This document shows positions 1-4,919 of a DNA stretch of 4,919 nucleotides, in pieces. Under the pieces are notes generated by a model. That model made no database searches and was not told the origin of the DNA. It saw only the letters and a list, made by a program, of their open reading frames with translations. How positions within the stretch are numbered: the first letter of the stretch is position 1; every line of letters starts with the position of its first letter. This stretch comes from a virus (Duplodnaviria; Heunggongvirae; Uroviricota; Caudoviricetes). The DNA lies in IMG/VR virus record IMGVR_UViG_2913123054_000007, positions 1-4,919 of that record. One strand, written 5' to 3'. Position numbers and translations under genes: made by a program.

Positions 1-342
1 ATGATGAAAAAAAGTATATTGGCGTTTTTGTTGCTCACCAGTTCCACTGCGGCGCTGGCGGCTCCTCAGGTAATTACCGTCAGCCGTTTTGAAATTGGCA
101 AAGACAAATGGGCGTTTAATCGCGAAGAAGTGATGTTGACATGCCGACCAGGTAATGCGCTGTATGTCATTAACCCCAGCACCCTGGTGCAATACCCTTT
201 GAACGATGTTGCGCAAAAAGAGGTTTCCAGTGGGAAGACTAAGGCCCAGCCTATTTCAGTGATCCAGATTGAAGATCCCAACAAACCCGGTGAAAAAATG
301 AGCCTGATGCCATTTATAGAACGAGCTGAAAAACTTTGCTGA
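1..342 (+). CDS. yebY: Small secreted/periplasmic protein with N-terminal signal peptide, YebY-like (DUF2511-type, from memory)
   Basis: ATG at 1, stop TGA 340-342, 113 aa. The N-terminus [22 protein letters not shown] is a classic Sec signal peptide with an AxA cleavage motif. The sequence matches my recollection of E. coli YebY; this was not verified by search. Confidence 0.8.
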
Positions 343-370
343 TTACCTGAATTAGGCTTTTGATTTGCCA

Positions 371-414
371 AAAAAAACGCCCAGGATCTTTTATCAGATC
401 GGGCGTTTTTTTTA
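371..414. terminator. Bidirectional rho-independent terminator (yebY on +, antisense sRNA on -)
   Basis: A8 run 371-378, GC-rich stem 379-383/402-406 (CGCCC/GGGCG) extended by GATC/GATC 386-389/398-401, 8-nt loop, then T8 run 407-414. The A-run upstream and T-run downstream let it terminate on both strands. Confidence 0.8.
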
Positions 415-479
415 CTTTTAAAACGATGATTAAGACGCTTTTTTCTGACCACTTTTCGTGTGGACTGGAAAACCTGGCG

Positions 480-498
480 TCGTCATCTATTCTTAAAG
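480..498 (+). promoter_or_regulatory. Candidate sigma-S-type promoter for sdsR
   Basis: CTATTCTTAA at 486-495 resembles the extended sigma-S -10 consensus (C at -13 followed by TAYACT-like hexamer). No clear -35, which is common for RpoS promoters. Predicted start about 499-501. Confidence 0.5.
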
Positions 499-603
499 GG
501 CTAGGCAACTAAGCCTGCATTAATGCCAACTTTTAGCGCACGGCTCTCTCCCAAGAGCCATTTCCCTGGACCGAATACAGGAATCGTATTCGGTCTTTTT
601 TTA
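499..603 (+). ncRNA. sdsR: SdsR (RyeB) RpoS-dependent small RNA
   Basis: About 104 nt downstream of yebY with three stem-loops: GCATTAATGC region (~515-527), GGCTCT/AGAGCC (543-560), and a perfect 10-bp terminator hairpin GACCGAATAC/GTATTCGGTC (569-595) followed by T7 (596-602). The sequence and the position next to yebY match what I recall of sdsR. Ends are approximate (+/-3 nt). Confidence 0.65.
580..602. other. Candidate attL core (last ~23 bp of sdsR)
   Basis: Published work that I recall (Salmonella/E. coli ryeA/ryeB locus as an insertion hot spot) places the phage attachment core in the last ~23 bp of ryeB. That corresponds to GGAATCGTATTCGGTCTTTTTTT here, and int ends 130 bp away at 734. 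The exact core limits cannot be fixed without attR or an empty site. Confidence 0.4.
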
Positions 604-614
604 ATTGTATTTAA

Positions 615-627
615 AATCAATTGGTTG
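615..627 (+). promoter_or_regulatory. Possible IHF binding site in the att arm
   Basis: AATCAATTGGTTG matches the IHF consensus WATCAANNNNTTR, in an AT-rich segment between the candidate core and int. Confidence 0.3.
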
Positions 628-636
628 CAAACGTCT

Positions 637-668
637 CCCCGAAATTCCCCGAAATTTACTCGAATTTC
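637..668. repeat. Tandem 10-bp direct repeats CCCCGAAATT x2 plus a degenerate third copy (candidate arm-type Int sites)
   Basis: CCCCGAAATT at 637-646 and 647-656, then ACTCGAATTTC at 658-668. They lie between the candidate core and the int stop, where arm-type sites are expected. Confidence 0.3.
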
Positions 669-733
669 TGTATTCCGGTCTTTTTTGGTTATATCACAAC
701 CAAAATACATTTAACAATCCATTTACGTTAAAA

Positions 734-1810
734 TCAGAGCAGTAAGTACGTTTTTTCTCTCTCATCAAGATACATTTTTGTTGTCTTCTCCGATGTGTGG
801 CCAAGTAGACGCTGAGCAAATTCTTCTCCACATGTCTCTTTGTACAATCGTCCAGCCAGACTTCTGATCTCGTGAAAAGTTGGTGGGTTTTCACTGAACT
901 GGATACCTGTTAATTTTCTGGCTGCGACAAATTTTTTTGTCAGGCCATCCGGGTGAATGCTGCCGTCAGGGCTGTTTTTTCTAATCCCGGCACTGATTAG
1001 ATAATCCCCCCTACTTACCAGGCGGCACCGTTCAACTATTGTACCAAGCCGTAATCCAGCGACCGGAAGGTTGAGTGACAGGGGGATAGCAATCATCATT
1101 CCCGTCTTAATTTGCCTGATGTGGAGACGATCATCATAAATATCACTGAACCGCATATTCGTTATGTCTTCGCGACGTTGTCCTGTTACAAGGGCTAAGT
1201 CCATAGCTAATGGGAACCATGCCGGAAGTTGGTCTGCTGCCTCCCTGATGCAGTTGTATGTCTTTAGTTTCAGTCGTTCTCTTGTAACTACTATTTTCGG
1301 TGCTCTTGTTGGCGTTACTGGATTTTGAGATATACGTCCTTCAACAATGGCCTCGCGGAACATATCAGATAACACAGAACGCATTGATCCTGCCATCGTG
1401 TTTTTCCCTCCTTCAATCCACGAATCAAGAAACTCGGCAATATGGCGAGTGGTTATTTCTGTCAGTAAAATCCCTCCCAGTTTTTCTTTTATTGTCTCCA
1501 GTTGATTTACCCGAATTTTATAAGTATTTCTGGACACTTTTCTCCTTATAAGAATCGTTTTGTAACGTTCGATCCAGTTTGACATAGTAAATGAATCGCC
1601 CCCTTTAAGTTTTTCAATTAAGGCTACAGGAGAGTAGGTTTTGTATATATAATGATTGGCTTCAATTGCCTGTGCTACCGCATCTCTTTTTGAAATTTTA
1701 CCTAGCGTAAATTCTTCTTTTGTCAGAGGATTGCGCCAGTAGTATGCTTTGTCCCTTCTTCGATATGTTAGGTTTCTAGGCAAATTGGGATCGTATTTTT
1801 TCCGCTGCAT
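734..1810 (-). CDS. int: Lambda-family tyrosine integrase
   Basis: 358 aa, ATG at 1810, stop TGA 734-736. It aligns along its length with lambda Int from memory (PNL..YYxRxPxTxKEF N-terminal arm-binding region; [11 protein letters not shown] vs lambda HELRSLSARLY; LLGH box; catalytic Tyr in KMYLDER near the C-terminus). Confidence 0.95.
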
Positions 1811-2057
1811 TTTTTAATTTCTCCAGTAACGGACTGTCTCTCCCTTGCCGACCAGTAGGCTGATGGTTTGTTATATCGGTATCAAACTTATTTGGGTTGA
1901 TATAGAATGCCTCCGGATCCACCCTGTAACTCCTCCCGTGCAGTTCAGGTGCGGGATAAATATTTCCATTCCTGGCCCACCGTCTCAGCGTTGATATTGA
2001 TGGTGGGTTATCCGGATATCTGAGTTTCCCCCACGTTTTGAGTGTCACAAGATTCAT
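1776..2057 (-). CDS. xis: Excisionase
   Basis: TLRRWARNGNIYPAPELHGRSYRV resembles the lambda Xis winged-helix region (TVRRWVRECRIFPPPVKDGREYLF). It overlaps the int start by 35 nt, as in lambda. I chose ATG at 2057 (MNLVTLK...) because AAGAGGT lies 7 nt upstream; the track's ATG at 2063 sits only 1 nt from that Shine-Dalgarno. Confidence 0.8.
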   Translation of the reverse strand: MNLVTLKTWGKLRYPDNPPSISTLRRWARNGNIYPAPELHGRSYRVDPEAFYINPNKFDTDITNHQPTGRQGRDSPLLEKLKNAAEKIRSQFA

Positions 2058-2079
2058 TGCCATACCTCTTACGATATGA

Positions 2080-2108
2080 CCGCCAGTAAATATACAGAAT
2101 ACTGGCGG
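2080..2108 (-). promoter_or_regulatory. 9-bp inverted repeat hairpin in the only sizeable intergenic gap of the operon
   Basis: CCGCCAGTA (2080-2088) and TACTGGCGG (2100-2108) flank an 11-nt loop, between the small-ORF stop (2164) and the xis start. No T-run follows on the - strand, so it is not a canonical terminator. Confidence 0.3.
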
Positions 2109-2163
2109 GCGTGGTTGATTTTTAATAATCAGCTATGAAGTTTTAATTTGAATACAATGCAAT

Positions 2164-2352
2164 TCACGAGGACTGAAGTTGCTCGCAATTAAAATTTATC
2201 AGTTTTACTTTCTGCTCTCTGGAAACGCCTGCTTCTTTTTTACCTGAGAGCATTTTTTCGCATTCTGATTTGGTTAACTTTGTTTTTGAGTACCTTGTCC
2301 AGTTGGTAGGAGAACCACCTTCCTTTTCAATAGTGGTGGTAATTTTATACAT
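2164..2352 (-). CDS. Small basic hypothetical protein (62 aa), possibly YdaC-like by synteny
   Basis: ATG at 2352 is preceded by GGAGGTG at the right spacing; stop TGA 2164-2166. The track's 86-aa version starts inside lar and lacks an RBS. Its position between xis and lar mirrors Rac (intR-xisR-ydaC-lar). I cannot confirm sequence homology from memory. Confidence 0.55.
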   Translation of the reverse strand: MYKITTTIEKEGGSPTNWTRYSKTKLTKSECEKMLSGKKEAGVSREQKVKLINFNCEQLQSS

Positions 2353-2575
2353 GAACACCTCCATTATTATTTCCAGTGGTTCGTTTATTCCATCTTTCGA
2401 GTGCTTCTTTTTCACTTCCACCATAACCGGTTCGGGATTTGCATCCGTTACACTTCGCTCGGTAATATCCTGAAATGGCTTTCACCGTTACTGATGGACA
2501 ACCACAAAATGGACATGGTTTGACTTTTGTGTATCGAACTGGTTTTTCTCCTGTGAGCTTTGTGGCTGCGCTCAT
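2345..2575 (-). CDS. lar: Lar-family restriction alleviation protein (zinc ribbon)
   Basis: 76 aa. CPFCG...CNGC forms a C-x2-C-x17-C-x2-C motif followed by EALERWNKR, typical of the Lar family as I recall it. The start ATG (2575-2573) overlaps the exo stop TGA (2574-2572) as ATGA. Confidence 0.75.
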
Positions 2576-3252
2576 TTCCATTGCTCCCCAAATACAAAAC
2601 CAATTTCAGCCAGTGCCTCGTCCATTTTTTCGATGAACTCCGGCACCATCTCGTCAAAACTCGCTATGTACTTTTCATCCCGCTCAACCACGACATAATG
2701 CAGGCCTTCACGCTTCATACGAGGGTCATAGTTGGCAAAGTACCAGGCATCTTTTCGCGTCACCCACATGCTGTACTGCACCTGGGCCATGTAAGCCGAC
2801 TTTATGGCCTCGAAACCACCGAGCCGGAACTTCATAAAATCCCGGGAGGTGAACGGGCATTTCAGCTCAAGGCCGTTGCCGTCACTGCATAAACCATCCG
2901 GAGAGCAGGCGGTACGCATACTTTCGTCGCGATAGATGATCGGGGATTCAGTAACATCCACGCCGGAAGTAAACTCAAACAGGGCTCTGGCGTCGTTCTC
3001 GTACTGTTTTCCCCAGGCCAGCGCCTTAGCGTTAACTTCAGGAGCCACACCGGTGCAAACCTCGGCAAGCAAGGTGTGGAAGTAGGACATTTTCATGTCT
3101 GGCCACTTTTTTCCTGAGCGGGGTTTTGCTATCACGTTGTGAACGTCTGAAGCTGTGATGACACCTAGCCGTAATTTGTGCCACGCATCATCTCCCTGTT
3201 CGACAGTTCTCACGTCGATCCCGGTACGCTGCAGGATAATGTCTGGTGTCAT
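2572..3252 (-). CDS. exo: Lambda exonuclease (Red alpha)
   Basis: 226 aa, [15 protein letters not shown]...GFVFGEQWK. It is essentially identical to lambda Exo from memory, with a few substitutions. The exo ATG overlaps the bet stop as ATGA. Confidence 0.97.
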
Positions 3253-4034
3253 GCTGCCACCTTCTGCCCTGCGGCTTTCTGTTTCAGGAATCCAAGAGCT
3301 TTTACCGCCTCGGCTTGTGTCAGTTCTGACGATGCGCGAATGTCGCGGCGAAGTATCTGGGAACAGAGCGGCAATAAGTCGTCATCCCATGTTTTATCCA
3401 GGGCGATCAGCAGAGTGTTAATCTCCTGCATGGTTTCCTCGTTAACCGGAGTGATGTCGCGTTCCGGTTGATGTTCTGCAGTGCATGCGGTATTTTCGAC
3501 AATGCGCTCGGCTTCATCCTTGTCATAAATACCAGCAAATCCGAAGGCCAGACGGGCACACTGAATCATGGCTTTATGCCGTAACATCCGTTTGGGATGC
3601 GACTGCCACGGTCCGGTGATTTCTTTGCCTTCTCGGGTTTTGAATGGTTCGCGACGGCACTCATCCATCCACTCGGTAACGCAGATCGGATGATTACGGT
3701 CCTTGCGGTAAATCCGGCATGTACATGATTCATTGTCCTGCTCAAAGTCCATGCCATCAAACTGCTGGTTTTCATTTATGATGCGGGACCAGCCATCAAC
3801 GCCCACCACCGGAACAATGCCGTTCTGCTTATCAGGGAAGGCGTAAATCTCTTTCGTCCACGGATTAAGTCCGTACTGGTTGGCGACGATCAGCAGCGCA
3901 ATGAATTGCGCATCGCTGGCATTACCTTTAAATGCCGTCTGGCGAAGAGTGGCGATCAGTTCCTGCGGGTCGACAGAATCCATGCCGACGCGTTCAGCCA
4001 GCTTCCCGGCCAGTGTTGCAAGTGCTGTACTCAT
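3249..4034 (-). CDS. bet: Red beta single-strand annealing protein
   Basis: 261 aa, [26 protein letters not shown]...; near-identical to lambda Bet from memory. AGAGG sits 10 nt upstream of the ATG at 4034. Confidence 0.97.
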
Positions 4035-4039
4035 TCGTT

Positions 4040-4339
4040 TTATACCTCTGAATCAATATCAACCTGGTGACGAGCAATGGTTTCAACCATGTACCGGATG
4101 TGCTCCGCCACGCGTTCCTGAAATTCAACATCGTTATCAAATGCGCGACTGATTGCCTGTTTGCTGGCACCGTGGCGTTGCAAATGGTCGATGCAGAGCG
4201 ATTCAAACAGGTGCTGGGGCAGACCTTTTTCCAGGTCGTCCGCCAGTTCCGTTTCTTTTTCTTCGCGAACGATCTTCTGGTAGTGGCGTGACCATGCCAG
4301 CTCTTCAATGCGATCAAAAATCGGGCATGTGCTCATCAT
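4040..4339 (-). CDS. gam: Gam, RecBCD inhibitor (short GamS-like form)
   Basis: 99 aa. ...[20 protein letters not shown]...[20 protein letters not shown] matches the lambda Gam C-terminal ~95 residues from memory. The start (ATG 4339 or 4336) lies inside the 3' end of the upstream ORF. Confidence 0.9.
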
Positions 4340-4919
4340 CCGTTACCCCAAAATTTTCAAGTTTGTTTGCGATCATCATTGCAATATCCGGAATTAATGG
4401 CGCTGAGGCTATACCTGCAGGATTCGCACATAAACCGTAAACCGCCGCAATCACCACTTGTCTTTTCCAGTCGAGTTTTTCTAATGATGAAGCTGCTGCT
4501 TCGCCAGTTTCATCACTGCAATCGCGATGCGGATCGCTGCCAGCATTCTCATTGTGCGTATGTTCTGTGCCTTCCATTTCCACCGGATCATTTTCCTTAG
4601 CTTCAACCTGATTCTCTTCATCGAATGTTTCCTGGTATGTTGCGTCGCCCATCACCGCACCACAGTCAGGGCAGTTATCCCCGCCAGTCTGACCGCAGGC
4701 ATTGCAGACTATTTCCGGTTCCTGTTGCACTACTGGCTCAGGTTGTTTCACATCCGGGCTGGTTTTTTCCGTTTCTGGCGTGTTTTGTTCCGTTTCTGGC
4801 TGGTTCTGGTACACAGAATCGCGAGTCTGGATCCCCTTAACCCATTTCGGATCGTTCGGGTCGCTAATTCCGTCAACAAATTCACCACGTGATGCAGCAA
4901 GCAATTTATCGGCATCGAC
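4314..4919 (-). CDS. Acidic, low-complexity protein with CxxC-x7-CxxC zinc knuckle; function unknown (5'-partial)
   Basis: The frame is open to the window edge: the track's 'M' at 4904 is a TTG and the reading frame continues (..[14 protein letters not shown]..). Stop TGA 4314-4316. About 40 D/E versus about 12 K/R by hand count. It has a PETExxT 7-aa repeat, [16 protein letters not shown] (~4660-4708) and a more hydrophobic C-terminal ~50 aa. I recognise no family. Confidence 0.6.

Follow-up and report, generated by a model that had tools for sequence, protein, structure and literature searches.

A predicted core-type half-site beyond the P' arm repeats of lambdoid prophages integrated at sdsR

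Organization of the locus

In our study, the left junction of a lambdoid prophage (Caudoviricetes) was analysed in a stretch of 4,919 nucleotides, positions 1 to 4,919 of IMG/VR record IMGVR_UViG_2913123054_000007, which is called the window. The window was found to contain yebY, followed by the small RNA (sRNA) gene sdsR, which encodes SdsR (RyeB), with its antisense RNA SraC/RyeA, and past these by the left end (attL) of the prophage with its integrase gene, int (Table 1). Between the core of the attachment site, which coincides with the terminator hairpin of sdsR, and the end of int, an extra core-type half-site was found. It is isolated and lies just outside P'3, the last of three tandem arm-type repeats of the P' arm, 5-6 nt past it and about 85 bp from the core. 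Its origin, conservation and possible role are described here.

Table 1. Features of the window; elements of the attachment site and promoter-like elements are predictions from the sequence
Feature	Position	Strand	Remarks
yebY	1-342	+	open reading frame (ORF); host gene leftward of sdsR; annotated as YebY family where E. coli genomes match
SraC/RyeA, conserved part	462-606	-	antisense to sdsR; Rfam RF00101, 175 bits
SdsR/RyeB sRNA gene	503-602	+	Rfam RF00111, 118 bits
B core-type half-site (host side)	569-578	+	GACCGAATAC; 5' side of the sdsR terminator stem; assignment modelled on the lambda core
Overlap	579-585	+	AGGAATC, 7 bp; terminator loop; from the junction alignment
C' core-type half-site (phage side)	586-595	+	GTATTCGGTC; then T-run 596-602
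Promoter-like element	604-631	-	TTTGCA-16-TACAAT; reads into sdsR antisense
IHF H'-like site	616-628	+	AATCAATTGGTTG
Arm-type repeat P'1	637-646	+	CCCCGAAATT; direct-repeat family D3
Arm-type repeat P'2	647-656	+	CCCCGAAATT; direct-repeat family D3
Arm-type repeat P'3, degenerate	658-667	+	ACTCGAATTT (aCTCGAATTT)
Extra core-type half-site	670-680	+	GTATTC(C)GGTC; isolated; direct repeat of C'/B'
T6 run after the extra half-site	681-686	+	Enterobacteriaceae clades only
Extended -10-like element	688-698	-	TGTGATATAAC; toward the extra half-site and sdsR antisense
int	734-1810	-	lambda-family tyrosine integrase with arm-binding N-domain
xis (excisionase)	1776-2063	-	Pfam PF07825, E = 1.6e-14; excisionase annotation

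The extra half-site within the window

The sequence GTATTCCGGTC with six T residues at 670-686 was found to repeat GTATTCGGTC with seven T residues at 586-602. The two copies have the same orientation, and their starts are 84 bp apart, which is about eight helical turns. A preliminary description of the window had noted a degenerate copy of the end of the sdsR terminator, with GAATCGTATTCGGTCTTTTTTT at 581-602 repeated as CGAATTTCTGTATTCCGGTCTTTTTT at 661-686 and immediately preceded by the tandem CCCCGAAATT repeats, and the sequences and repeats are as it gave them. The extent of the copy was narrowed, since the real repeat consists of 670-680 with its T-run, matching 586-595 with its T-run, whereas the first 7 nt of the proposed copy (CGAATTT, 661-667) belong to P'3.

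When the terminator (569-602) was aligned locally with the remainder of the window, the top alignment paired GTATT-CGGTCTTTTTT with GTATTCCGGTCTTTTTT (670-686), where 16 of 16 nucleotides were identical and one C was inserted (score 27). Among 1000 dinucleotide shuffles of the right-hand 4.3 kb (both strands), 7 attained this score, and none did among 1000 shuffles of the 131-nt intergenic arm next to int. As a half-site, the match in the window was 10/10 with one inserted base, which is a core-type sequence. As the stem of the terminator is perfectly palindromic, the copy matches its inverted 5' half and loop equally well. One relative (L009; loci are denoted by L numbers) has a variant that lacks the extra base. 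No inverted partner was present 7 nt upstream of 670-680, where 653-662 (ATTTACTCGA) is arm repeat, and the arrangement of a cleavage site is thus lacking. The extra half-site is therefore not a second crossover site and is presumably non-catalytic.

The RNA folds of 630-692, 655-692 and 630-720 were compared with those of shuffled sequences on both strands. The copy was found to have no hairpin of its own (-2.5 kcal/mol, z = 0.1), and the folds of either strand were at the level of the shuffles (z to -1.3). These results bear on a back-up intrinsic terminator, acting on SdsR read-through or on phage late transcription that enters int antisense, for which the resemblance of GGTC followed by T6 to the end of the sdsR terminator might speak. 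No upstream stem was found, a consensus scan called only the true sdsR terminator, and the T-run is not conserved in relatives; a terminator function is scarcely credible on these grounds, and the earlier wording, 'terminator 3' half plus T-run', was abandoned for the copy. Two other pairings were also rejected. A hairpin between P'3 and the copy (CGAAT...ATTCG) is broken in the E. coli clade and gave no fold signal, and an inverted copy of B plus overlap (flank AGAAAT against overlap AGGAAT) was not conserved in other clades and is regarded as a coincidence with the arm repeat.

Crossover region and phage origin of the copy

Five sequences were aligned with MAFFT, namely the window (attL), the unoccupied K-12 locus (attB), the attR of two lysogens and the free-phage record PP818812 (attP), in which P arm, core, P' arm and int follow one another without interruption and int is 96% identical. 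The only block common to attP and attB was ACAGGAATCGT, at window positions 577-587. To the right of this block attL contained the phage-type bases A588 and T597, followed by AATTG, and attR contained a phage-type base at the left (GAAAAC) and the host-type nucleotides G and C, followed by ATCTG, at the right. The reciprocal phage and host single-nucleotide differences in attL and attR place the crossover within 577-587, inside the loop of the sdsR terminator. The DNA from about 588 rightward is phage DNA, the second copy included, and so are the last ~15 nt of SdsR in the lysogen. The terminator hairpin has 11 bp (-15.8 kcal/mol), and its 7-nt loop is flanked by perfect 10-bp inverted half-sites. 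Reciprocal attL/attR hybrids and inverted half-sites round a short overlap are the marks of strand exchange at a lambda-type site; by analogy with lambda, the two stem halves suggest themselves as B and C', the inverted core-type sites, and the loop as the overlap, with putative cleavage positions.

The extra half-site was identical in PP818812 and was also present in further attP-form sequences (L040, L006, L145 and L159). The copy is thus inside the prophage and part of the phage attachment site, which was one of the two origins that had been suggested for it. It is not part of the homology block of attP and attB, as it lies ~85 bp outside the crossover region. The host part of the window was matched in 5,426 of 5,426 complete E. 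coli genomes; prophages of this type occupy sdsR in 228 of them, and in the 5,198 unoccupied genomes the match ends at window position 603. Had the copy been ordinary host sequence, it should have been found at unoccupied loci, and the K-12 locus is without it: no core-like 10-mer (2 mismatches or fewer) was present there within 400 nt downstream of sdsR. A host origin of the P' arm was also considered, as MAFFT had set K-12 CTGAGTCCAGCGTTTTTT opposite the copy, and was rejected because the local score was 16 against a shuffle mean of 15.9. Absent at the K-12 locus, present in free-phage attP and fixed in position throughout the family, the copy does not have the features of a pseudo-attachment site or scar.

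The P arms of 11 attP-form sequences contained no core-like copy, save a stray 10-mer with 1 mismatch in L097, ~250 nt out; the extra half-site is therefore position-specific. The record PP818812.1 (L001) carries the name 'Actinobacillus phage vB_Apl-pPE4'. Its int and attP share ~96% identity with their counterparts in sdsR prophages of E. coli, and the sdsR terminator of that species is matched by its core; the Actinobacillus host label looks doubtful.

Lambda-type architecture of the attachment site

Regulated, directional recombination has its textbook model in lambda, with four core half-sites, of which two belong to attB, together with five arm sites and sites for bending proteins. In our study, the integrase (Int) was found to contain the domains PF09003 (arm-binding; 28.1 bits, cutoff 22), PF22022 (central) and PF00589 (catalytic) of Pfam, which is the domain set of a heterobivalent lambda-type integrase. 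Int was 38% identical to lambda Int and 41% identical to HK022 Int across 97% of its length. The site resembling H' of integration host factor (IHF) matches the consensus WATCAANNNNTTR and is similar to its lambda counterpart ATCAATTTGTTGCAAC; a AATCAAnnnnTTA-like motif was present at this position in most relatives, not in all, and its columns contained 0.6-1.5 bits. All relatives contained three tandem repeats of ~10-11 bp each with an invariant TTCG core. The third repeat, degenerate in the window, is full in relatives such as Salmonella phage ZC-S1_prp (L006), which contains AAATTCGAG GAAATTTCGAG GAATTTCGAG. At 105-150 nt from the core, attP-form sequences also contained similar repeats in their P arm. 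Predicted arm-type repeats in both arms, with an IHF-like site between the core and the P' repeats, correspond to the lambda-type arrangement, and together with the lambda-type Int and Xis they identify the attachment system as lambda-type.

The likeness to lambda attP and attL thus extends to the Int domain set, the lambda-type Xis, the inverted half-sites round a 7-bp overlap, the H'-like IHF site between C' and P'1, the three tandem P' repeats at about +55 to +85, the arm-type repeats in the P arm, and the orientation of int, which reads toward attP and terminates with its stop codon where the arm ends. Two differences were found. The lambda core is intergenic and AT-rich, whereas the core here is the terminator hairpin of an sRNA; and functional lambda attP ends at P'3, whereas a fifth, isolated core-type half-site lies beyond P'3 here. 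The lambda sequence CAATTTTGT was considered as an equivalent and rejected, since it is inside the int coding sequence, matches C' in 7 of 9 nucleotides in the opposite orientation, and is common to HK022, which has a different core. In the GenBank record of lambda (NC_001416, L189) a feature 'int 4' is placed at 27814-27854, beyond P'3 in int, with P'1 to P'3 at 27786-27816; this feature is probably a coordinate slip in the record.

The last 23 bp of ryeB (sdsR) are reported as the attachment site of PhiW104 and others (Balbontin et al., 2008, as summarized in PMC7380047 and PMC3333887). The window is like PhiW104 in using the same hot spot, in regenerating the gene with a phage-carried sRNA 3' end, and in replacing the 5' part or promoter side of ryeA. 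Attachment at the 3' end of sdsR, the alteration of ryeA and the lambda-type architecture were already known. No description of a second, P'-distal copy of the core half-site was found in the literature searched.

Conservation in related prophages

About 190 loci were collected by scanning with Int, both as a single protein and as an alignment, their Int being 47-97% identical. They belong to Escherichia, Salmonella, Serratia, Yersinia, Rahnella, Rouxiella, Pectobacterium, Brenneria, Buttiauxella, Kluyvera, Enterobacter, Leclercia, Pantoea, Erwinia and other Enterobacterales. Nearly all of the loci were at sdsR, and 6 sampled loci were confirmed with Rfam. A constant order was found, which in the sense of int is the stop codon, a 10-mer near GACCGAATAY, a spacer of 5-6 nt, three arm repeats, the IHF-like site, an A-run, GACCGAATAC, GATTCCT and the host half-site. 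Throughout the relatives, C' was 68-70 bp away from the first arm TTCG.

The 10-mer ending 5-6 nt before the first arm TTCG was compared with the C' or B of its own locus in 62 representatives. No mismatch was found in 16, one in 11 and two in 6, so that 33 of the 62 had two mismatches or fewer, as against a mean of 5.2 mismatches for control windows. A further 15 loci had 3 ungapped mismatches, and some of these represent the form with a 1-nt insertion, as in the window. The columns of the copy contained about 1.0-1.6 bit, whereas the spacers beyond the arm repeats contained 0.05-0.4 bit. In most clades the copy is non-coding and directly past the int stop codon; in Serratia, Yersinia and related clades the place of the T-run is taken by TTTTA, the complement of the int stop codon. 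These comparative data are far stronger than the statistic from the single window. Chance resemblance in AT-rich DNA, for which the modest evidence of the window by itself (7 of 1000 shuffles) left some room, is effectively refuted, since dozens of diverged lineages carry this 10-mer in the same place.

Tandem related prophages were found at sdsR in Serratia montpellierensis (L088/L097) and Serratia aquatilis (L130/L140), 41-55 kb apart on the same contig. An attP-like hybrid junction was present between the tandem Serratia prophages, which confirms the behaviour of sdsR as a hot spot. One prophage (L008; IMG/VR UViG_2728369554_000022, 2620-2650, corresponding to window 596-680) was found without exactly 84-85 bp between the two copies. 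Its junction is AACCAAAAAAGACCG joined to AATACGATTCC, the IHF-like site and all three P' arm repeats are gone, and the prophage is probably locked in. The deletion indicates that the direct copies can recombine and that the repeat is a deletion liability. The 30 best matches among the 228 occupied complete E. coli genomes were all full-length, in two pieces spanning 200-201 bp, and no deletion of the L008 type was found in them. In Shigella flexneri SFBU1023 (L080, 2700-2760), several indels and substitutions in the sdsR gene and its terminator (GACCAACATGATTCCTGTATTGGGTC and GGAAATGG) look like assembly errors.

Coupling to the core rather than to the arm sites

The arm repeats were found to switch in concert between clades, TTCG being combined with AGT, GAC, GGA, AGG, TGG, TGT or ATA. 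The perfect GACCGAATAY was found alongside seven of these arm-repeat classes, and the copy thus does not show the co-variation of an arm-type site. This result bears on the proposal that the copy is a fourth arm-type site, inverted, bound by the Int N-domain and palindromic with P'3. The motif CCGAA(A)T occurs in the core half-site as well as on the complementary strand of the arm repeat, and where the arms read TTCGGAC, the copy makes up an inverted repeat of 7/8 nucleotides with P'3 (GACCGAAT ... ATTCGGAC). Nevertheless GACCGAATAY remains constant over at least seven arm classes, and where it changes it follows the core, as in two Serratia lineages (L100 and L099); an inverted arm site is quite improbable.

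In Serratia fonticola (L100), an A-to-G change was found to be common to the core (GACCGAGTAC) and the copy (GACCGAGTAT). In the Serratia rubidaea lineage (L099, L195 and L196), the attachment site has moved from sdsR to a place upstream of a catalase-peroxidase-like gene, and the closest Int relatives of this lineage (L197 and L198; 75% identical) still reside beside yebY and sdsR. In S. rubidaea the element is flanked by sequence identical to that in the Serratia sdsR phages, and the element itself is swapped. When both strands of the 4-kb locus were scanned with the new element, TAAAAAGTAACTAT, its best match was exactly at the predicted new C' (AAAAAGTATACCTATCG). A modular swap of Int domains in this lineage was rejected, as no clear domain boundary was seen, the N-domain being 82%, the core-binding domain 73% and the catalytic domain 74% identical to the sdsR relatives.

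A site for another protein, such as Xis, a host factor or a phage regulator, that resembles the core by accident would also be conserved, position-specific and beside the int stop codon. It would not be expected to have 9-10/10 identity to the core by coincidence or to switch together with the core, as in L099, and no IHF consensus was found in it; the lambda Xis sites, moreover, are in the P arm, which counts against Xis as the binder. This reading, which would require the identity with the core to be fortuitous, is very unlikely.

The copy could also be a passive relic, in which the att core was duplicated by an old tandem integration or an aberrant excision and is now functionless; a scar of an earlier integration had been the other origin suggested at first. 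Such a history would suit three observations: core and T-run are directly repeated in the E. coli clade, tandem prophages occur at the hot spot, and the copies have recombined in L008. Duplication as the origin of the element is compatible with the data. A functionless relic, however, should not keep a fixed register and sequence in about 60 lineages with Int 47-97% identical, among them lineages in which Int is only 47-60% identical, while the adjacent spacers are saturated and without similarity. The copy is present in free-phage attP and absent at unoccupied loci, and in the S. rubidaea lineage, with its changed core, the element was replaced and not just decayed. The idea of a scar was therefore set aside, and a passive relic is regarded as unlikely.

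Promoter-like elements and the antisense RNA

In the lysogen the native promoter side of ryeA is exchanged for phage DNA. Lysogeny at the sdsR site is reported to change the 5' part of ryeA and the levels of RyeA and RyeB (reviewed in PMC7380047). Two promoter-like elements of the phage arm on the minus strand (Table 1) may replace the displaced native ryeA promoter, judging from their sequences. The element at 688-698 is conserved only in Enterobacteriaceae clades (E. coli, Salmonella, Pseudescherichia, Citrobacter and Scandinavium), where it reads TGTGRTATAA, and it is absent in the clades whose int abuts the extra half-site. In attL of KplE1, Int sites overlap a promoter (PMC2951348). The Enterobacteriaceae clades are similar in that the extra half-site is at the predicted start of the minus-strand promoter-like element. 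The KplE1 sites are arm-type and their promoter serves the integrase gene itself, whereas the candidate element described here reads away from int into sdsR antisense and is clade-specific.

The copy might accordingly act at the level of RNA, as the 5' end of a phage-promoted RyeA-like antisense RNA or within the 3' untranslated region of the int mRNA, by pairing with one half of the terminator stem. The promoter-like TGTGRTATAA 2-8 nt upstream in Enterobacteriaceae clades, the altered levels of RyeA and RyeB in lysogens, and the inverted pair I3, in which 573-584 and 664-675 (12 nt) are 92% complementary, would agree with such a role. In most clades, however, the copy abuts the int stop codon without any promoter-like element and is conserved all the same. 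The folds of both strands were no better than those of shuffles (z from -0.3 to -1.3), a long-range helix would lose out to the terminator hairpin formed locally (-15.8 kcal/mol), and the same logic applies in the S. rubidaea lineage, where the target is not an sRNA. We consider a role of the copy in RNA pairing improbable.

In the lysogen the 3' half and U-tract of the SdsR terminator are also phage-derived, as window 586-603 contains GTATTCGGTCTTTTTTT and K-12 contains GTGTTCGGTCTCTTTTT (L003, 1622-1645). The U-tract of the lysogen is an uninterrupted U7 in place of UCUCUUUUU, with the predicted hairpin energy unchanged. The U7 tract supplied by the phage might bear on the rise of RyeB reported in lysogens (PMC7380047).

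A proposed docking site for integrase

Judged by these comparisons, the copy is phage DNA and a predicted core-type half-site, position-specific and apparently maintained by selection, on the outer border of the P' arm. That a copy stays equal to the core half-site would be explained most simply by its recognition by the same core-binding and catalytic surface of Int. We therefore propose that 670-680 may serve as an auxiliary, non-catalytic core-type docking site for Int. Taken as one statement, this proposal appears to us evenly balanced between right and wrong; within it, a functional element of attP deserves more confidence than that, and the specific docking role less.

In the proposed mechanism, the core-binding and catalytic domains of Int would bind the extra half-site, and the bound protomer would most plausibly be the one whose N-domain occupies the adjacent P'3. 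The extra half-site would thus be a docking place in cis for the P'3 protomer, which could raise the occupancy of Int at the weak outer end of the arm, and the docked catalytic domain would be held until it is handed over to a bacterial half-site at synapsis. In lambda, the Int N-domains are placed on P'1 to P'3 in a row, and just two of the four arm-core bridges of Int are formed on attP before attB is captured (PMC4880445). This precedent of unoccupied catalytic domains before synapsis is the basis of the docking proposal, by analogy. A bolder version, tentative and on balance doubtful, is that the intasomes of this family use the fifth core-type site by P'3 as a surrogate in cis for an attB half-site, pre-loading or parking the outermost Int catalytic domain until attB is captured.

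Several results weigh against a docking site. Lambda Int binds isolated core half-sites only weakly. To our knowledge, no equivalent core-type site has been described beyond P'3 in lambda or HK022, and no comparable element was evident in the sequences of these two phages. Host-specific variants of the core were not mirrored by the copy in L105, L107, L118/119, L127 and L142. Degenerate copies were found, namely GACAGGATAT in Kluyvera, Enterobacter and Leclercia and GCCCGGGGAT in L107, and the copy was nearly lost in L137; that of the window itself contains the 1-nt insertion. Among the other lineages outside sdsR, L125 and L185 showed weak, low-complexity self-matches to their cores, and L123, L124, L174 and L187 showed no self-match to their own cores. 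Extra IMG/VR scans with integrases not associated with sdsR gave no new informative lineages. Binding of Int at 670-680 is itself putative, being deduced from sequence, and docking of the P'3 protomer is drawn from the analogy with lambda.

If the docking site is real, it must match the core specificity of Int and would co-evolve with the attachment site, so that the extra half-site could serve as an internal read-out of the target specificity of the phage. The site would at the same time be an inherent weakness: when the direct repeats recombine, as in L008, the P' arm is lost and the prophage becomes locked in. A deletion allele without arm sites is explained in this way. A conserved extra half-site would add an element to the textbook architecture of lambda attP, and it offers a testable hypothesis of how Int protomers with unoccupied catalytic domains are held before the capture of attB. 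The comparison also sharpens the annotation of prophage boundaries and att sites at the sdsR hot spot, where, in lysogens, the end of SdsR and the DNA at the usual start of ryeA are phage sequence.

Neighbouring genes

Rightward of xis, the window contained the RalA sRNA with the RalR toxin, followed by exo, bet and a gam-like gene. The RalA antitoxin sRNA (Rfam, 206 bits; 2168-2346, plus strand) was found to overlap the RalR-like toxin ORF (2345-2581, minus strand). RalR/RalA is a type I toxin-antitoxin system of the Rac type, and its neighbours here are the lambda-type exo, bet and gam, not recET.

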